Source: Deferrisomatales bacterium (GTDB lineage: Bacteria; Desulfobacterota; Deferrisomatia; Deferrisomatales; JACRMM01). Taken from it: 64,000 bases of DNA. A program made the translations under genes and the position numbers. Below are positions 13,517 through 22,303 of the stretch, one piece after another. The notes beneath the pieces are model-generated. The model did no database searches. It was given only the letters and a program-made list of their open reading frames with translations, and had not been told where the DNA came from. The stretch is taken from the NCBI GenBank assembly GCA_033551855.1, contig JAWSUI010000002.1, positions 134,594-198,593 of the forward strand. Reading direction: 5' to 3'. Each line of letters begins with the position of its first letter. The first letter of the stretch is position 1.

Positions 13517-16500
13517 TCAGGATGTCCCTGGGTCCTCCGCCTCCCTGCCCGAAGATCCCCACCAGTTCCGCAGCCGCCGCAGGCGGCGGGGTCCGCGTCG
13601 AAAGATTTCCTCCAGGGAGAGATGGGGGTCTCGGGCCGGATCCTCCAGGTAGTCCCGGATCGCGTCGAGACGGCGTCGGAGGTCCCCCTCCAGGGCGAGG
13701 CGCAGCCCAGCCCTTCCCGCCAGGATGCGCTGCTTGAGGTTCGGTGGGGGGCGCTCTCCTTGGTGCTTCCTCAGCTTGTACTCGATCCGTGCGGCGATCA
13801 GACCCAAGAGGGTCTCCTGGTGCTCGGGGCCGAGCCACAGCACCTCCGGGACCAGGTCCCCGAAGTGGGTCACCCCCAGGACATCCTTCCCCTGCGCCCA
13901 GTAGCCGGCAAGGAACTCCGGATCGAGGTCCCGGTAGTTCTGCAGGGGCAGATACATGCGCCGCAGGTGCTGGAGGACCTTTTCGGCCTTGCGCCTGTGG
14001 CCGCCGATGATGACGGGGCTCCCCACCTCTCCGCGCTTGACCCCCTTGGTCCAGGGGGCGCCCGTGATCCCGAAGTCGTTGCACACCGGAATGAGCAGGA
14101 GGGCGGAGAGGGTGCTGATGGCCAGCGCGTAGCCCGCCGAGGGGCCTCCCACCGCGTAGGAGGCGGACAGCAGTTGGTGGTGGACGGTGTACTTGTCGAG
14201 GAACTCTCCCAGAAGCCGGGCGACGTTGATCTTGGGTGAGAGGCCCTGGAGGTAGTTCTCCACCAGTGTAAGTGCCTCCCGGGCGGACTGTTGGGTCATC
14301 TGGACGGCCATGTCCATCTCCGCCGCGGTGGGCGCGGTCGAGGAGACCGCACCGGTCACCAGCACCTTCTCGGCCGAGAGGTTGTAGACGAGGCTCGTCG
14401 CGATGGGCAGGAGCACGCCCGCCACGTCGCTTGCCCCCACACCGACGATGAACCCAACCTGGGGCTCTTGGCTGAGCTCCGCCTCCAGGAACTCGTCGAG
14501 TTGCACCTTCCCCTTCTTCGTCGGGCTCTGACTCATCTCCTCCCGGGCCGCCTCGAGGTGGGAAGCTGCCAGGGGGTAGTCGTCGCTGCCCCGCACCCCG
14601 TCCGCCAGCGCCAGGACCTCTTCGCAGTGCCGCAGGAACTCCAGGGGCTCGCTCTCCAGCCGTGCCTTGGCCGTTCGAGGAGCCCCGAGGGCCTCCAGGA
14701 TCCCGAGGAGGATCCGCAGGTTGAACTTCACGAAGTTCTCTCGGGCTTCGGGGGGCGCTGCGGTGAGCTCCCGAAGCCTGCGAATGACCGCCCACTCCGT
14801 GGCCCTCAGGGCCAGGGCCTTGTCGGTGAAGGCGGCGTAATCGGCCGGCGTGTTGCACACCGCTCGGGCCGCCTCCTCGATCCGTGCGGGGTCGAGCTTC
14901 TCTGCCAGTGGGATGCCGGCCAGCTTCTTCGCCACGATCTCGGCGACGTCGTCCCGCCGCAAGTGTCCGCTGATCTCCAGGGCCTTGAGGCGCTTGGAGC
15001 GCACGAGGGCCGGGTCCAGGATGTCGAGGCGGTTGGTGGTGAGCACGGTGAAGACCCGGTTGAGGGGCACCTCCCCGTCCACGAGGTTGAGGAACTTGTT
15101 GGTCACTTTGTCCTGGGGTGCCCCTCCCGAGGGGCTCCGGCGGGGGACGAGGGCGTCCCCTTCGTCGATGAAGACCACGGCCGGCGCGATCATCTTGGCA
15201 ATGTCGTACACGTGCTCCAGGTTCTCCACCGTGCCGTCGATGGGGTTCATCGGATCCTGCAGGTCCGTGGGACGCACGGCCAGGTCGTGCACGTCGGGAT
15301 TCTCGCTCAGCCACGCCCGGGCCAGGAAGGTCTTGCCGCTGCCAGGAGGGCCCGCCAGCACGAGCCCCTTCTCGTCGCTCACCCCGTAGTAGAGGCAGTT
15401 CATGGCCAGCTCGGAGAACTGGTTCTTGATCCCGCCCACGTACTGCTCCCAGCGCACCGAGCGATCCATCCGGTCCACGACCCGCTTGTAGAGATCCCCG
15501 TGGGCGTTGCGGGCCACCTGCTCGAAGGCGCTGCGCACCAGGAGGGCGTCGTCCAGGTGATCCGGCCGGAACCCCCCCCGCATCTCGACGATGGACCGGA
15601 CCAGCTTGCGCACATAGGAGGGAGTGATCTTGAGCGCCTTCTCCCGGAAGATCGGGTAGAGCCGGTCAACCGCCGCTTCCAGATCCGCCGGGGGCAGGTA
15701 CGAGATCCCCGGGGGCAGGGGACCCACGGGCGGGAAGCCCACCCGGATGTCCGCCCGCAGGAGCTCGATCCGCACGACCTCCCGCAGATTGTCGCGGCTC
15801 TTCCAGAACTCGGAGACATCGACGATGCGGCCCTTCTCGACGAAGCGGCGGTAGATGGCCGCATCGAACCTCTCGGGCTGGTCCGTCGTGGCGACGAGGA
15901 CACAGTCGCGCTGACCGTCGATGATCTCGTCCAGCAGGATGTTGGCGGTGTCCACCAGGGTCTGTTGCTGGCTCGAGACCGAGGTGGACCGGCTTTCCGC
16001 CCGGCCGAAGGCGCTGTGGGCCTCCTCCACGTGTCGGACGGTGGTGCGTCGAGGGTCCCCGAGGGCCTTGCGCAGGTAGTTGCCGGGTTCCCCGGCCAGG
16101 GCGGTCTGGTAGTCGTTGGGGGTGACCACGGCGTAGTCCACGGCGAGGCCCCGCTCCTGGAGCTCGGCCAGGTGCCCGGCAACGCGCTTCTGGAAGAGCC
16201 GCCGTACCAGCCAGCGGCGCGAAAGGAACTGGTAGAGCTTGAGGCGCCGCCGGCGGTAGATGTCCTGTGCCAGGGTCGGATCCACCGACTCGATGGTGCG
16301 CCAAAAAGGCTCTTCGGCCAGCACCTCCTCGCGCTTCTTGCCCAGGTCGACCTCGGGAAGGACTTCGTGGCGGAACATCACGGCCTCGAGGGCCTCGGCC
16401 GTCGTCGCGGTCTTGCCGGCGCCGCTGGGACCGATCACCAGCAGTAGCGGGGCCTTGGGCACCTCGGGATCGGCCAGGTACTCCTTGCGGACGTGGACCC

Positions 16501-16918
16501 GGTAGATCTTTTCGAGGAGCTCCCGGAACTCCGAGGGGACGTGAACGTCGGCGAGCTCCCGGTTCAGGAGCGCCAGCAGGTAGGTGTAGTCCTTGGCCGT
16601 CAGCTCCCTCTCCAGCATGCGGTTCCACGCCGCCCGGGGGGAGGTCTCTCCGGAGAATTCGAACCGGCGCTGCCAGTCGGTGAGGATCTGGGGGTCCCGC
16701 AGGATCGCAAACCCCTGTTCCCGAGGGCGCCAGAGCAGCGAGAGCAGCCCTTCCACCAGGCCGTGCAGGAGGCCCGACGGCGGGGTGAACTGGTTCAGGC
16801 GTGCCCGCAGGAATGCCTTGGTCTCGTAGGACCAAGAGGCCACGAGCGCCTCGATCTCCCGGATGCGCCGCTCCGGGAGGCGGACGTACCGGACCTCTCT
16901 GGTGACCCGTTTGGCCAT
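13517..16918 (-). CDS. Tandem AAA+ ATPase (D1+D2) fused to a Lon-type (S16) protease domain
   Basis: D1 GPSGAGKT...VRHVEE...ATTDQPERFDAAIYRRF; D2 GPPGSGKT...VVFIDEGD...TTNRLDILDPALVRSKRL; Lon-C PQVGFIVG...VTG...GPSAG...GITG...IIGGHRRK...LPLQNYRDL. Confidence 0.85.
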   Translation of the reverse strand: MAKRVTREVRYVRLPERRIREIEALVASWSYETKAFLRARLNQFTPPSGLLHGLVEGLLSLLWRPREQGFAILRDPQILTDWQRRFEFSGETSPRAAWNRMLERELTAKDYTYLLALLNRELADVHVPSEFRELLEKIYRVHVRKEYLADPEVPKAPLLLVIGPSGAGKTATTAEALEAVMFRHEVLPEVDLGKKREEVLAEEPFWRTIESVDPTLAQDIYRRRRLKLYQFLSRRWLVRRLFQKRVAGHLAELQERGLAVDYAVVTPNDYQTALAGEPGNYLRKALGDPRRTTVRHVEEAHSAFGRAESRSTSVSSQQQTLVDTANILLDEIIDGQRDCVLVATTDQPERFDAAIYRRFVEKGRIVDVSEFWKSRDNLREVVRIELLRADIRVGFPPVGPLPPGISYLPPADLEAAVDRLYPIFREKALKITPSYVRKLVRSIVEMRGGFRPDHLDDALLVRSAFEQVARNAHGDLYKRVVDRMDRSVRWEQYVGGIKNQFSELAMNCLYYGVSDEKGLVLAGPPGSGKTFLARAWLSENPDVHDLAVRPTDLQDPMNPIDGTVENLEHVYDIAKMIAPAVVFIDEGDALVPRRSPSGGAPQDKVTNKFLNLVDGEVPLNRVFTVLTTNRLDILDPALVRSKRLKALEISGHLRRDDVAEIVAKKLAGIPLAEKLDPARIEEAARAVCNTPADYAAFTDKALALRATEWAVIRRLRELTAAPPEARENFVKFNLRILLGILEALGAPRTAKARLESEPLEFLRHCEEVLALADGVRGSDDYPLAASHLEAAREEMSQSPTKKGKVQLDEFLEAELSQEPQVGFIVGVGASDVAGVLLPIATSLVYNLSAEKVLVTGAVSSTAPTAAEMDMAVQMTQQSAREALTLVENYLQGLSPKINVARLLGEFLDKYTVHHQLLSASYAVGGPSAGYALAISTLSALLLIPVCNDFGITGAPWTKGVKRGEVGSPVIIGGHRRKAEKVLQHLRRMYLPLQNYRDLDPEFLAGYWAQGKDVLGVTHFGDLVPEVLWLGPEHQETLLGLIAARIEYKLRKHQGERPPPNLKQRILAGRAGLRLALEGDLRRRLDAIRDYLEDPARDPHLSLEEIFRRGPRRLRRLRNWWGSSGREAEDPGTS

Positions 16919-16924
16919 GTCGGT

Positions 16925-17872
16925 TCAGCGGGCTGCGGGGGGGGCCGGCGCCGGCTGTGGCGGTGGGGCGGGCAGGGTCAAGGCGGGGGCGCCCCCGGTG
17001 TTTTGGATCACCACCGTGTTCTGGCCCGTCTGGTTCTTCTCATAGGCCGTGGCCCACTTCTGCTGGTTGAGGAACTCGAGCAGGGCCGTGTCGGTGGCGC
17101 CATCGGGGCGCCCGACCTCCCGTTGGAGGTCCCGGATGCTCTCGACGTACGCGCCGTAGAGCTTCCGGATTCGGCTGGCCTCCTGGTCGGCGGCGTAGTT
17201 CTCCGCCTCGGCGATGAGCTCGCGCCGCTTCTTTTCCTCACTGGCTTCCACGAGGTTGTCGCCGAAGCGGGTCTCCCGGAGAACGAAGCTGACCACCTCT
17301 ACGCCGTACTTCTGTTCCAGGGTGGGCCCACCGACGTTGATGGGTCGGTCCTTGAGGGCCCGGTAGATCTCCTCCTTGATCTCTTCCCTCGCGCTCACGA
17401 GGCGGTTGATCTCCTGGGCCTGGAGAATGTCTTTCGCCAGCCCGTCGTAGTCGGCCTGGAGGAGCTCGAGCGGACGCAGGTTCTCGATCGCCCACAGGCG
17501 CAGGTCGCGGATGCGGAAGGTGAGGACACCGGAGGTCCAGAGGGCGACGTTCTCCCGGGAGATGATCCGCACCGGCTCCTCGACCCCCCCCAGCGCCAGG
17601 CGCTGGTTCATCAAGGGCACTTCTTGCTCGATCCGGGTGAAGAACGGGAGCCTCGTGTGCCAGCCGACCTCGGTGATCACCTCACGGGTGCCCCCCAGCC
17701 GCTCGAGCACCACGGCGTAGTTGAGGCGAACCTTGAAGATCGTGCGGGTCGCGTACACCACGGCGACGGCGCCGTAGAGGAGCCCCGCCAGGACCGCCAG
17801 GCCCACCAGGCGGCGCACGAGGGCCGTCACGGCGGCCCTCCTCAGCAAAGGGGGAGTCTCCGGGTGTTCCAT
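16925..17872 (-). CDS. SPFH (band 7/prohibitin/HflK-like) membrane protein
   Basis: N-terminal TM, then YAVVLERLGG..GWHTRLPFFTRI, IISRENVAL, REEIKEEI, YGVEVVSFVLRE and a coiled-coil; ATG at 17872. Confidence 0.85.
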   Translation of the reverse strand: MEHPETPPLLRRAAVTALVRRLVGLAVLAGLLYGAVAVVYATRTIFKVRLNYAVVLERLGGTREVITEVGWHTRLPFFTRIEQEVPLMNQRLALGGVEEPVRIISRENVALWTSGVLTFRIRDLRLWAIENLRPLELLQADYDGLAKDILQAQEINRLVSAREEIKEEIYRALKDRPINVGGPTLEQKYGVEVVSFVLRETRFGDNLVEASEEKKRRELIAEAENYAADQEASRIRKLYGAYVESIRDLQREVGRPDGATDTALLEFLNQQKWATAYEKNQTGQNTVVIQNTGGAPALTLPAPPPQPAPAPPAAR

Positions 17873-18509: not shown

Positions 18510-18605
18510 GGACGTCCATCCGGGCTTCCGTGGCACCTGCACCGGGACGAGGGGGGCGGGGGCCGCCCCGTGCTCCGGAGACGGTGTCGGAGCAGGAGGT
18601 GCCGC

Positions 18606-19640
18606 TTGAAGGTCCAGTTTCGGAATCTGGTGTTCGAGGGGGGTGGGGTCAGGGGCATTGCCTACGTGGGGGCCATGAAGTTGCTGGAGCAACGGGGAGC
18701 CCTCGACCACGTCCGCAGGGTCGGCGGCGCCAGCGCCGGGGCGATCAACGCGCTGATCCACGCCCTGGGATTTCCGATCGCCGAGCAGCAGCAGCTTCTA
18801 TCCTCGACGGATTTCCGGCGGTTCCTCGACGACTCCTTCGGGGTGATCCGCGACGTGCGCCGCCTCGCGAGGGAATTCGGCTGGCACAAGGGCGACTTCG
18901 TCTCCACTTGGGTGGGCGACCTCATCGAGAGCAAGCTCGGGCGGCGCGACGCTACCTTTCGGGACCTCCAGGCTGCCGGCCGTCCTGACCTCTACGTGGT
19001 CGGGACCAACCTGAGCACCGGGTGGGCAGAGGTCTTCTCCGCCGAGCGCCACGGCGACATGCCCCTGGCCAGGGCGCTGCGCATCAGCATGTCGATTCCC
19101 CTCTTCTTCGCGGCGGTGCGTCATGGGGCCCGGGGGGACGTCTACGTGGACGGGGGCGTGGTGCTGAATTACCCGGTCAAGCTCTTCGACCGGGAACGGT
19201 ACGTGGACCTCGCGGGGGAGCCCTACGGGGCGGCAAGCACGGCATACTACAGCCGCGAGAACGCCCGCTTCGCCCTGGAAAGGCCGGGGCGGAGCCCCTA
19301 CGTGTACAATCGGCAGACCCTCGGCCTGCGGCTGGACACCCGGGAGGAGATCGCGCTCTACCGGTACGACGAGCCCCCCAGGGGCCGCCCCATCTCCCGG
19401 TTCACGGAGTACGCCCGGGCGCTCACCTCCGCCCTGCTGCGGGTGCAGGAAAACCAGCACCTCCACGAGGACGACTGGCACCGTACCCTGTACATCGACA
19501 CCCTGGACGTCCGGACCACGGACTTTGCGCTGAGCGAAGAGAAGAAGGCGGCGCTCCTGGAGTCGGGCATCGCGTGTGCCGAGGCCTACTTCCGCTGGTT
19601 CGAGGACCCGGCGCAGGTCCCCGCGAACCGCGTAGGGTGA
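18606..19640 (+). CDS. Patatin-like phospholipase
   Basis: NLVFEGGGVRGIAY oxyanion motif, GASAG nucleophile, DGG; GGAGG RBS before TTG at 18606. Confidence 0.92.
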   Translation: MKVQFRNLVFEGGGVRGIAYVGAMKLLEQRGALDHVRRVGGASAGAINALIHALGFPIAEQQQLLSSTDFRRFLDDSFGVIRDVRRLAREFGWHKGDFVSTWVGDLIESKLGRRDATFRDLQAAGRPDLYVVGTNLSTGWAEVFSAERHGDMPLARALRISMSIPLFFAAVRHGARGDVYVDGGVVLNYPVKLFDRERYVDLAGEPYGAASTAYYSRENARFALERPGRSPYVYNRQTLGLRLDTREEIALYRYDEPPRGRPISRFTEYARALTSALLRVQENQHLHEDDWHRTLYIDTLDVRTTDFALSEEKKAALLESGIACAEAYFRWFEDPAQVPANRVG

Positions 19641-19718: not shown

Positions 19719-21509
19719 GTGAACCCCCGCATCGCCTCCATGGAGAACCTCATCGCCCGGGATCCGGGCGGGAGGAACGTCTTCGGGCTGGTCGCCGCGG
19801 ACCAGCTCCGGCTCGCCGCCCAGGCGCTGCGGTTCGCCCGGCGCGTGGCCGTGGTCACCGGGTACTTCATCCCGGAGGCCGGGGCGGGGGAGACGGATGG
19901 CCCCCCCGGGGCGGTGGCCCTCGGCGAGGCGCTGGGGGCCCTGGGCATCCCCGTGGACTACCTGACCGACGGCCCCAACGCGCCGCTTCTGCGCTCCCTG
20001 GGCGCCGAGCCCATCGTCCTCGAGGGCGCCCCTGAAGACGTCGCCGCGGGCTGCCGACGCTACCTGGAGGAGAGCCGCCCCACCCACCTGGTCTCGGTGG
20101 AGCGGGCGGGGCGCGCGGCGGACGGGACGTACCGCAACATGCGCGGTACCGACATCACGACCGTCACCGCACCCCTGGACGAGCTCTTCCTGGAGGCGTC
20201 GCAGCGGGGCCTGACCACCATCGGGGTCGGGGACGGCGGCAACGAGATCGGAATGGGCCGGGTGTTCGCCGCAACGAGAACCGGCGTGCCCCATGGCCGG
20301 GCGCTCGCCACCACCGTGGCGACCGACTTTTGCGTGGCCGCCGGCGTCTCCAACTGGGGAGCCTTGGGGCTCGTGGGCGCCCTCTCCGTCCTGGAGGGGC
20401 GGGACCTGCTGCCTTCCGGGGCTCGCCTCGTGGAGGGGCTCCACCGCTTGGTGGAGGTGGGCGGTGCCGTGGACGGCGTGACCCGCCGGCGGGAGCCGAC
20501 GGTGGACGGCCTGCCCGTGGCCGAGTCTCTCCGGGTCCTCGCGGAGTTGCGCGGACACGTGGCCCCGCCGCCCTTCCTCTCAGGAAGGCCCCTGGCCGTA
20601 GGCGTCCTGGGGTGGGGGGAGACCGGGCGCGCCGCCGCTGCGCTGTTGCGACGCCGGGGGCACCGTGTGCGGGTCTCGGACCACGCGGCGGTGTGTCCCC
20701 CTTCCGAGGAGGACGAAATCCTCGAGGGCTTCGAAGCAGGTGGGCATACCGTCGGCTTCCTCGCCCCCTGCGACGCGGTGGTTGCGAGCCCGGGTGTGCC
20801 GGTTGACGCCCCGATCCGGGCGGCCCTCCACGAGCGGGGCATCCCCGTCGTGAGCGCCCTGGAGATGGCCTACGCGTTCTGTCCCCATCCCCTCGTAGGC
20901 GTGACCGGGACCGTGGGGAAGCGCACCACGGTGGAGCTCATCGGGCGCATGTTTCGCCAGGCCGGACGCCCCGTGGCTGTCGGCGGCAACCGCGGCGCAC
21001 CGCTGGCGGCCCTCCTGCTCGGGCAGGACGGCCGGCCCCCGGAGCCGGACACGACTCTGGTCCTGGCGGTATCGAGCTTCCAGTTGGAGGGCGTGGTGCA
21101 CTTCCGTCCCCCCATCGCGGCGATGCTCAACATCGACGCGGCACACCTCGACCGGCACCGCACCGTGGCCGAGTACGTGCGGGTCAAGAGCCGCATCTTC
21201 ATGAACCACCGCCCCGAGGACGTGCTCATCCTCAACGGCGAGGATTCGAGGCTCCGGCCCCTTGCATCGAAACACCCGGGGCGCACCTTCTTCGTGGGGC
21301 GCCGCCGGACCGGGGATCTCGGCGCGTGGCTGGAGCGGGGGGGGGTCCGTGCGAACACCGAGGGGGCCGTGGAGCGGCTGGGCCGGGCCGAGCACCCCTA
21401 CCCGGAGGTGCTGCTCACCGCCGTGCTGGCCGCTCTGCTGAGCGGGATTCCCCCCGACGCCGCCGGGGCTGCGCTGCGCCGGGTTCGCACCGGGGGAGGG
21501 AGCACCTGA
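19719..21509 (+). CDS. DUF4392 (glutamate cyclase-like) domain fused to truncated MurD-like domains 1-2
   Basis: N-half ETDGPPGA, VERAGRAADGTYRNMRG, GDGGNEIGMG, VSNWG; C-half GVLGWGETG, SPGVP, GVTGTVGKRTT, GGNRG, SSFQLE, HLDRH, YVRVKSRIF. Confidence 0.82.
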   Translation: MNPRIASMENLIARDPGGRNVFGLVAADQLRLAAQALRFARRVAVVTGYFIPEAGAGETDGPPGAVALGEALGALGIPVDYLTDGPNAPLLRSLGAEPIVLEGAPEDVAAGCRRYLEESRPTHLVSVERAGRAADGTYRNMRGTDITTVTAPLDELFLEASQRGLTTIGVGDGGNEIGMGRVFAATRTGVPHGRALATTVATDFCVAAGVSNWGALGLVGALSVLEGRDLLPSGARLVEGLHRLVEVGGAVDGVTRRREPTVDGLPVAESLRVLAELRGHVAPPPFLSGRPLAVGVLGWGETGRAAAALLRRRGHRVRVSDHAAVCPPSEEDEILEGFEAGGHTVGFLAPCDAVVASPGVPVDAPIRAALHERGIPVVSALEMAYAFCPHPLVGVTGTVGKRTTVELIGRMFRQAGRPVAVGGNRGAPLAALLLGQDGRPPEPDTTLVLAVSSFQLEGVVHFRPPIAAMLNIDAAHLDRHRTVAEYVRVKSRIFMNHRPEDVLILNGEDSRLRPLASKHPGRTFFVGRRRTGDLGAWLERGGVRANTEGAVERLGRAEHPYPEVLLTAVLAALLSGIPPDAAGAALRRVRTGGGST

Positions 21510-22303
21510 TGCTCGAAACCAATCGTCTCCCCACCGGACGGGACGTGCGCGACGCCTGCCGCCGGGGCGAGCTCACGGGGCCCACCGCCGGCTTGGCCCC
21601 TGGGTACGGCCAGGCCAACCTGGTCGTCGTGCCCCAGGAGGCGGCCGAGGACTTCGCGGCCTTCTGTGAGCGAAACCCCAGGCCCTGCCCCCTCTTGGAG
21701 CGGACCGGACCCGGCGGCTGGGAGCCCCGGCGCCTCGCGCCGGGGGCCGACCTGCGCACCGACCTCCCCCGCTACCGGGTGCTGCGGGAGGGGCGGTGCA
21801 CCGCTCGGCCCACGGACATCCTTTCCCTGTGGCGTGAGGACTTCGTGGCCTTCCTGCTCGGATGCTCCTTCACCTTCGAGGCCGCGCTCCTCGACGCCGG
21901 GGTCCCGGTTCGACACCTCGAGGAGGGGCGCAACGTGCCCATGTTCCGCACATCCTTGGCCTGCGTCCCCGCAGGGCCCTTCAGGGGCCCCTTGGTGGTC
22001 TCCATGCGCCCCATGCCCCCGGAGCAGGCGGCCCGCGCGGCCGAGATCACGGCGCGCCACCCCCACTTCCACGGCGCTCCGGTCCACGTGGGCGACCCCG
22101 GGGCCATCGGCGTCGCCGACCTCGCCAGACCAGACTATGGCGACGCCGTCACCGTGCGACCCGGGGAGGTTCCCGTGTTCTGGGCCTGCGGCGTCACCCC
22201 TCTGGAGGCCCTCCTTGGTGCGGGGCTCGAGGTCGCCGCGACCCACGAGCCCGGCCACATGTTCGTGACGGACCTCTCCGACCGGGATCTGCTGGGGCTG
22301 TAG
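21509..22303 (+). CDS. DUF1445 putative hydro-lyase / D-glutamate cyclase family protein
   Basis: QANLVV, NPRPCPLL, DLRTDLPRYRV, LGCSFTFE, VVSMRP, PVFWACGVTP, PGHMFVTD; TGATG overlap with the upstream gene. Confidence 0.9.
   Translation: MLETNRLPTGRDVRDACRRGELTGPTAGLAPGYGQANLVVVPQEAAEDFAAFCERNPRPCPLLERTGPGGWEPRRLAPGADLRTDLPRYRVLREGRCTARPTDILSLWREDFVAFLLGCSFTFEAALLDAGVPVRHLEEGRNVPMFRTSLACVPAGPFRGPLVVSMRPMPPEQAARAAEITARHPHFHGAPVHVGDPGAIGVADLARPDYGDAVTVRPGEVPVFWACGVTPLEALLGAGLEVAATHEPGHMFVTDLSDRDLLGL

Follow-up and report, generated by a model that had tools for sequence, protein, structure and literature searches.

The stretch of DNA analysed here (the window: 64,000 nucleotides (nt) of contig JAWSUI010000002.1 from a Deferrisomatales bacterium) carries a pair of genes, transmitted as a unit in certain sediment bacteria, that together encode a kind of SPFH-associated AAA+ protease with an undescribed architecture. 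The first gene (16925..17872, minus strand) encodes an SPFH/Band-7 protein of 315 amino acids (aa), recognised by Pfam Band_7, hydropathy, AlphaFold2 (AF2) modelling and Foldseek, and the second (13517..16918, minus strand) encodes a tandem classical-AAA / Lon peptidase fusion of 1133 aa that is without a transmembrane (TM) segment. The fusion is a new ATP-dependent protease architecture; its function we infer, together with hexamer formation, SPFH binding, topology and substrates, and the pair is most likely a kind of membrane protein quality-control machine. Textbook accounts of bacterial ATP-dependent proteases hold ClpXP/ClpAP/ClpCP, HslUV, Lon, FtsH and the proteasome. A conserved family with a Lon peptidase on a Cdc48-style double motor would add an architecture to that set, and would show motor and peptidase domains of different clades to have been newly combined.

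An earlier reading of this DNA made from sequence alone (the sequence-only reading) had described two co-oriented genes 6 bp apart, an SPFH protein and a protease with two P-loop modules and an intact Lon dyad, and had expected two AAA matches, Lon_C and Band_7 from a profile search. The two open reading frames (ORFs) were verified in the same orientation with a gap of 6 bp, and all three families were matched in Pfam: AAA in two stretches of the protease (E 4.8e-27), Lon_C at aa 808-998 (E 8.2e-6; 26 bits against a cut-off of 21.1) and Band_7 at aa 47-232 of the SPFH protein (E 9.9e-14). The P-loops GPSGAGKT (nt 16409-16432) and GPPGSGKT (nt 15329-15352) are both in place, and the dyad is intact, with the Ser927 codon of GPSAG at 14138-14140 and Lys977 exactly 50 residues on. 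A classic-clade second region of homology (SRH) had been claimed after each module; both motifs are present, but those of the first and second modules (D1 and D2) differ in type. Misannotation or chimerism was rejected as an explanation, since over 100 genomes carry the protease as one ORF.

The protease, read from its N-terminus (all coordinates on the minus strand), opens with a family-specific helical domain (aa 1-121; 16556..16918) that is neither CDC48_N nor a Lon N-domain. AAA module D1 (aa 122-480; 15479..16555) carries Walker A K169, a variant Walker B E298/E299, pore loop ALAGE, a sensor-1 Asp and a YRRF motif with R357/R358, and holds a helical insertion of 74 aa (aa 185-258; 16145..16366) between Walker A and pore loop 1, within which lies a basic helix (aa 222-239). 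AAA module D2 (aa 485-800; 14519..15466) follows, with Walker A K529, Walker B D585/E586, sensor-1 N629, R640/R643 and, in the AF2 model, a helical insertion of ~80 aa in its lid (aa 701-780). The Lon (S16) peptidase domain (aa 815-1030; 13829..14476) contributes S927, T952 and K977 (nt 13988-13990), and a second family-specific element, a C-terminal helical hairpin with a short helix (aa 1031-1107; 13598..13828), closes the chain. Neither the N-domain nor the C-terminal hairpin had a Pfam or NCBIfam match. Kyte-Doolittle (KD) hydropathy gave no TM segment in the protease, the only hydrophobic windows lying inside the Lon core (821-839 and 928-946).

Predicted structure agrees with this layout. 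The AF2 model of the protease, built with 11 sequences as input, has a mean predicted local distance difference test score (pLDDT) of 79.5 and a predicted template modelling score (pTM) of 0.58, and Foldseek placed p97/Cdc48 at the top over 660-740 columns spanning both modules, with a high root-mean-square deviation (rmsd) of 11-14 Å. That the C-terminal domain would model as Lon_C was upheld both by the Pfam match over cut-off and by VIA-align, in which aa 821-1030 aligned to E. coli Lon 1rr9 with Z 17.1 (rmsd 2.8, 179 aligned, 26% identity); the same domain gave Z 16.8 against MtaLonA 4ypm, Z 14.9 at 11% identity against the BrxL C-domain and Z 14.2 against RadA. Full-length Lon chains align across D2 and the peptidase together (7sxo: Z 17.6, 441 aligned, rmsd 6.2), and the stacking of these two domains is therefore Lon-like. 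Searching the Lon region alone against the PDB with phmmer gave 0 matches; the fold search did detect the Lon fold.

A homolog search for the protease returned 684 proteins at E <= 0.001 among 7999 candidates, and the best 120 of the 684 are full-length (1112-1154 aa) and, the window's own cluster apart, 62-85% identical, the named ones among them being mostly Desulfobacterales, Deltaproteobacteria or Deferrisomatales; one homolog carries the name of the cultured Desulfatitalea tepidiphila. Among representatives at 50% identity there were also divergent proteins, six of them full-length at 35-40% identity and a seventh of 1068 aa at 34%, besides fragments; the clusters of two of these divergent proteins contain members labelled Woesearchaeota and Nanoarchaeota, and the others carry no taxon. 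In a metagenome scan with the divergent alignment at least five family loci came up, every one of them sharing 54-64% identity with the protease of the window. Throughout the close alignment (the window protein and 119 homologs, n=120), K169, E298, E299, R357 and R358 of D1, K529, D585, E586, N629, R640 and R643 of D2, and G924-G929 (including S927), T952, G972, G973 and K977 of the Lon domain are invariant in 120/120, so that the domain architecture is not a product of chance. An 11-row alignment that takes in the seven divergent proteins retains K169, E299, K529, E586, N629, R640, R643, S927, T952 and K977; the Ser927/Lys977 dyad is kept in 7/7 divergent full-length members, some of them labelled DPANN archaea, and a separate divergent alignment retains the serine and lysine in 10/10 rows. 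The Lon domain is the best-conserved region of the protease (mean identity 0.795, compared with 0.668 for the whole), which argues for an active peptidase. Among 29 other long AAA representatives there was no Lon_C within the top five Pfam families and no match to the Lon profile. Two neighbouring architectures were seen in passing: ESM Atlas clusters 4 and 5 hold archaeal AAA + Lon_C proteins of ~910-920 aa (Thermoproteota, Bathyarchaeota; feature score 0.97), and two proteins of 1184-1195 aa (P0192, P0213), with relatives labelled Thermoleophilaceae, place three FtsH-type AAA modules before a Peptidase_M41, another multi-motor protease architecture.

The SPFH protein is a dedicated, strictly linked partner of this protease, as the sequence-only reading had supposed when it proposed a conserved linkage. 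In a sample of 201 genomes labelled Desulfobacterales, which are kin and whose counts are thus not independent, the protease is found in 42 and an SPFH ortholog in 40, all 40 within the 42; the two genes are adjacent on one contig in 38/40, and in the two split cases, as in both genomes negative for SPFH, the protease gene stands at the start of a contig. In a sample of 301 genomes from the phylum of the window, 5 are positive for the protease, and these are also the 5 positive for SPFH. Across 55 loci (at least three of them duplicates, and one the window itself), SPFH lies upstream on the same strand in 47/47 of those with upstream DNA, and the remaining 8/55 end at a contig edge. The intergenic gaps (n=26) overlap in 16 cases and are <=20 bp in 25, which suggests translational coupling, and the SPFH orthologs, at 60-80% identity, follow the protease in their pairwise identities (rho 0.75, again among kin that are not independent). 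The GC content of the unit (0.67-0.71) equals that of the window, and a promoter and terminator scan gave nothing exceeding shuffled sequences. One locus (L015:5504-7615) holds a broken copy, in which SPFH is cut short near residue 166 and the match to the protease skips from 602 to 980, through deletion, pseudogene formation or assembly error.

Within the SPFH protein, a basic N-terminal helix (aa 8-22) is followed by a TM segment (~aa 23-42), the SPFH1+2 domains (43-206), a coiled coil (207-253), a conserved C-terminal segment (aa 262-296) and a Pro/Ala tail. The description of a TM-anchored SPFH protein stood: Band_7 was matched in 40/40 members and KD hydropathy placed an N-terminal TM in 119/119 homologs; more than 100 orthologs stand at 70-90% identity. 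Its basic N-terminal arm and TM (17747..17851, minus strand) form a candidate cytosolic docking arm; R12 is invariant in 40/40 paired sequences and A13, R20 and R21 are at least 90% conserved. The AF2 model (pLDDT 74.5) matches HflK/C, stomatin, prohibitin and QmcA in Foldseek with no clear winner, QmcA and stomatin are nearest by sequence (E 3e-4 to 2e-3), and 0 NCBIfam families were matched. The N-side of the TM is richer in lysine and arginine than the C-side in 119/120 sequences (and in 119/119 by a second count, at 5.8 vs 3.2), a direction shared by 4/4 HflK/C controls, and the topology therefore leans towards N-in/C-out, with a cage that would face the periplasm. If the SPFH domain is indeed outward, only the short conserved RRA arm would be reachable by a cytosolic protease. 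An SPFH cage enclosing the protease, as the sequence-only reading had imagined, is accordingly not favoured: a cage that is probably outward could not surround a soluble cytosolic protease.

That the architecture was not a characterised family had been suspected from the outset, and the suspicion held. None of the curated NCBIfam models was reached by the protease, whether CDC48 (TIGR01243, 84.6/802.65), Lon (TIGR00763, 37.7/608), LonB (TIGR00764, 31.7/516.6) or FtsH (scores of 53-56 against cut-offs of 600-1008), and searches of the open-licence PMC/bioRxiv literature brought up no account of tandem classical AAA modules fused to Lon, or of the SPFH operon, though supplements in comparative genomics could list the architecture. 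Band-7 operons with other AAA+ ATPases have been described, with no 'Lon' in the part of that paper available (PMC11237479). The protease belongs to none of LonA/B/C, Cdc48, FtsH or BrxL.

With LonA, LonB and LonC (MEROPS S16) the protease shares the Lon fold, a G-P-S-A-G serine motif with a Lys partner and the stacking of AAA module on peptidase, and G-P-S-A-G is the LonA-type serine motif; in place of a single Lon-type module it has two of the classical clade, with no Lon N-domain and no TM insertion, and its Ser-Lys spacing is 50 (120/120 close sequences), compared with 43 in E. coli Lon. LonA was rejected on the absence of LON_substr_bdg and Lon_lid matches, on the two classical AAA modules and on the low TIGR00763 score. 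The membrane anchor of LonB sits between Walker A and B, as does the D1 insertion here; this insertion is basic and without a TM, and a LonB-type anchor was rejected on those grounds and on the TIGR00764 score. LonC, which has a degenerate AAA-like domain devoid of ATP-hydrolysis residues and degrades only unfolded substrates with no ATP-powered unfolding (PMC3391209), was rejected on the invariance of the D2 Walker A/B, sensor-1 and arginine fingers. Cdc48/p97/VAT, partnered in archaea by the 20S proteasome, provides the best sequence and fold matches and the same tandem of classical AAA modules, and the D1 pore loop is non-aromatic in yeast Cdc48 too; unlike these proteins, the protease is without CDC48_N, has its own peptidase, lacks an aromatic pore residue in D2, and carries in D1 an EE Walker B, a spastin-like arginine finger and the 74-aa insertion. 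Genuine Cdc48 proteins in the set analysed do match CDC48_N/CDC48_2 in Pfam; the protease matches neither domain, and its N-domain is helical in the model. FtsH-HflK/HflC and m-AAA-prohibitin resemble the pair in joining a classical-clade AAA and a protease in one chain and in having a single-TM SPFH partner; the differences from FtsH-HflK/C are two AAA modules, a Lon Ser-Lys site in place of the M41 zinc site and the absence of a TM (no Peptidase_M41 Pfam match and no N-terminal TM helices were found), and, where HflK and HflC are two, the pair has one SPFH gene, always in a two-gene unit with its protease. In stomatin/QmcA-NfeD (STOPP), too, the genes for SPFH and a Ser-Lys protease are operon partners, and the SPFH here is closest to QmcA/stomatin; the partner in the present case is a soluble AAA-AAA-Lon, not a membrane NfeD/ClpP-like protein. 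BrxL, finally, joins an AAA+ module to a Lon-like C-terminal domain; it was rejected, given the intact dyad of the protease, the absence of a PADLOC BrxL match for it and the absence of BREX genes in the flanks.

How such a machine might work is best approached through its precedents, FtsH-HflK/C, m-AAA-prohibitin and, in endoplasmic-reticulum-associated degradation (ERAD), erlin-p97. Cages of HflK/C, prohibitin and erlin lie on the side away from the motor, and erlins act with p97 in ERAD (PMC12624060). We consider it somewhat more probable than not that the pair is a membrane-associated ATP-dependent protease, a hexameric D1-D2-Lon held at the cytosolic membrane face by SPFH and by its own basic surfaces, and degrading membrane or membrane-proximal clients. 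The large protein would most likely be hexameric, with D1, D2 and the Lon chamber as three rings in a stack and the Ser-Lys site inside. Its N-domain and the basic D1 insertion would attach it to the inner membrane from the cytosolic side, and so would the dedicated SPFH partner with its conserved basic N-terminal arms. The SPFH oligomer, probably lying outside the membrane, may build a ring or cage that corrals membrane clients; D2 would serve as the main ATPase, whilst D1 would bind ATP and probably handle substrate entry and regulation; and clients, conceivably misassembled or regulated membrane proteins, would be pulled into the Lon chamber and cleaved there. Such a working would resemble FtsH-HflK/C, or erlin-p97 plus the proteasome. 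The pair would be an accessory system beside FtsH, HflK/C and LonA: the genome itself keeps 3 FtsH-like AAA genes, 2 full Lon genes and an HflK/HflC-like pair elsewhere, and the unit is on that account accessory. A replacement for a missing FtsH or Lon was rejected for the same reason, both being kept. Three long ORFs in that genome (983, 880 and 626 aa) also contain partial Lon_C matches (C7:24885-25190, C17:58961-59275 and C13:55418-55738).

A more ambitious version, tentative and on balance doubtful, would make the pair a further class of prokaryotic energy-dependent protease: a one-chain equivalent of Cdc48 plus proteasome with an ERAD-like route, in which an outward SPFH cage would mark a patch of membrane, the motor would be docked beneath on the basic N-arms, and membrane proteins would be extracted and destroyed in its own Lon chamber. 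If true, the family and the ~910-aa archaeal AAA/Lon_C clusters would belong to one superfamily across domains, of which the family would be a branch and in which membrane partners are exchanged. The pair is also a two-component, clonable system for asking how SPFH cages regulate AAA proteases across the membrane, the protease in this case being itself devoid of a TM.

D2 is a canonical classical-clade ATPase with an FtsH/Cdc48-type SRH, nearest to VAT/p97 by sequence, and its pore loop has a 2-residue insertion relative to VAT. D1 is more unusual, with a variant Walker B of the form H-I/V-E-E-A, an Asp at sensor-1 and an arginine finger (DxAxxRRF) whose match to spastin is weak and non-significant (E 0.19-0.39). 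In a quick tree (78 domain rows, 181 columns), the family's D1 and D2 formed separate, well-supported, long-branch clades (4.75 and 2.59) that fell within neither Cdc48 nor FtsH, the base of the tree being unresolved. Of the Cdc48-like double ring that the sequence-only reading had proposed, the p97-like tandem layout thus stood, whilst descent from Cdc48 is less certain, there being no CDC48_N and D1 and D2 falling outside the Cdc48 groups in the quick tree; 'Cdc48-like' would seem to describe a layout and not a proven descent. The helix at aa 222-239 of the D1 insertion is the most basic of the protease (mean net charge +7.6 over 120 sequences; hydrophobic moment 0.18), and the insertion is a candidate membrane or partner contact.

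A number of observations weigh against a membrane-docked, unfolding protease. Firstly, D1 is without the usual Walker B Asp (EE, with L/V in some divergent members) and has Asp at sensor-1, its pore loop 1 (ALAGE) is aromatic in 0/120 of the bacterial clade, and pore loop 1 of D2 (DPxNPIDG, residues 555-563) has an aromatic F/W/Y in only 3/120. Yeast Cdc48 also lacks an aromatic pore residue in D1, and its D2 aromatic is essential (PMC5511170); processive extraction by the bacterial form is for that reason doubtful, and strong unfoldase activity of the bacterial enzyme, judged from its motifs, is uncertain. Secondly, the basic D1 helix is not clearly amphipathic, is basic in 5/7 divergent members and weak or absent in 2/7, and could bind nucleic acid instead. 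Thirdly, the C-side flank of the SPFH TM is likewise net basic (+2 to +3), so that the topology is no more than a lean. Finally, no substrate gene travels with the pair, and there is no SPFH-protease fusion among proteins of 553-2000 aa, which is weak evidence.

One must consider, then, that SPFH may be the substrate and not the scaffold, the AAA-AAA-Lon disassembling or clipping its own cage and so opening or turning over a membrane microdomain, much as in NfeD/STOPP, where the Ser-Lys protease of Pyrococcus cleaves its operon partner stomatin (PMC3795559). The kinship of SPFH to QmcA and stomatin points this way, as do the high conservation of its C-terminal segment (0.71) and coiled coil (0.83) and the D1 arginine finger, weakly matched to the spastin/Vps4 type. 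Such fingers are typical of polymer-disassembling AAAs, and strict 1:1 linkage fits a dedicated substrate equally well as a scaffold. We nonetheless hold this unlikely: should the SPFH domain lie outward, as the positive-inside lean suggests, the cytosol would reach only the short N-arm, and an entire double-ring protease for one substrate would be costly.

It is quite unlikely, for its part, that the enzyme is ATP-gated and not force-generating, with AAA rings that assemble or gate the Lon chamber so that only unfolded or SPFH-delivered polypeptides are degraded. The missing aromatic pore loops of the bacterial clade and the variant D1 motifs would fit such an enzyme, for which LonC, limited to unfolded substrates (PMC3391209), would be the model; unlike LonC, however, every D2 hydrolysis residue is invariant, and among divergent sequences (n=12) pore loop 1 of D1 reads W-Y-G or Y-Y-G in 10, W-Y-S in 1 and L-A-G in 1. 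As the divergent loops are mostly aromatic, the ancestral form looks like a threading motor, and the contrast in D1 loops, aromatic in the divergent and partly DPANN-labelled proteins and non-aromatic in those of Desulfobacterota, offers a natural test of which ring pulls the substrate.

The least likely explanation is a conflict or defence module triggered by stress or infection, in which SPFH would sense a membrane perturbation (phage entry, for example) and switch the protease on; the patchy distribution (42/201 Desulfobacterales; 5/301 in the phylum sample) and the Woesearchaeota and Nanoarchaeota labels of divergent relatives would suit it, as would P0149, which joins an EACC1-type caspase to a Lys-less copy of the family's Lon and hairpin, yet a conflict effector would hardly be expected to show conservation as high as 60-85%, no relative lies in viral contigs, plasmids (Lon region) or phages (SPFH), and the caspase-Lon fusion was found in 0/301 Desulfobacterales genomes, a search with no positive control. 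P0149 (595 aa) is a single sequence on a 3.5-kb contig, with 172.6 bits to NF047832 against a cut-off of 140 and a Lon/hairpin copy 41% identical to the family's, and may serve as a decoy or a homotypic adaptor. Systems built on EACC1 caspases have been predicted to act in conflicts, and their C-terminal domains vary (PMC7159879). Phage defence by analogy with BrxL, which the sequence-only reading had kept as an alternative, found little support: the Lon-like domain of BrxL is without a catalytic protease motif and BrxL binds DNA (PMC10164562), and the protease (P0001) has no BrxL match in PADLOC.

Genomic context adds to the case against defence. The window's flanks are housekeeping genes, on which a defence-island location was rejected, and the same kind of site recurs in 20 Desulfobacterales loci, with an alpha/beta hydrolase in 11, an RNA methyltransferase in 9, CinA in 8 and an amidohydrolase in 5; the pair is consistent with a stable chromosomal site, shaped by inheritance and loss, and not with a mobile island. 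PADLOC on 149/195 flanking ORFs (some of which were probably picked on the wrong strand, so that genes may be missed) gave 17 matches, most of them cross-hits, with 9 from the RNA methyltransferase, 1 from an ordinary LonA and only 2 that look possibly real as defence.

Further neighbours deserve a brief mention. On a Desulfuromonas-labelled contig (L014:2737-4691), an hflK/hflC-like pair stands divergent and directly upstream of the unit, in 1/37 loci, and a gene for what may be a second SPFH-type protein, judged by its N-terminal sequence, accompanies the pair together with a zinc-ribbon protein in 2/37 (L005:2268-3392 and L006:2139-3269). In one genome (L147:553-2970) an ordinary LonA lies upstream of the pair, at a distance of ~3 kb. 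Within the window, a patatin-like phospholipase (18570-19640) is divergent beside the SPFH gene, with a weak PADLOC effector match (E 1e-9), and does not recur in the 20 Desulfobacterales loci; beyond it (19719-22303), a D-glutamate cyclase-like domain is fused to a MurD-like Mur ligase (596 aa), an unusual fusion, and is followed by a D-glutamate cyclase gene.

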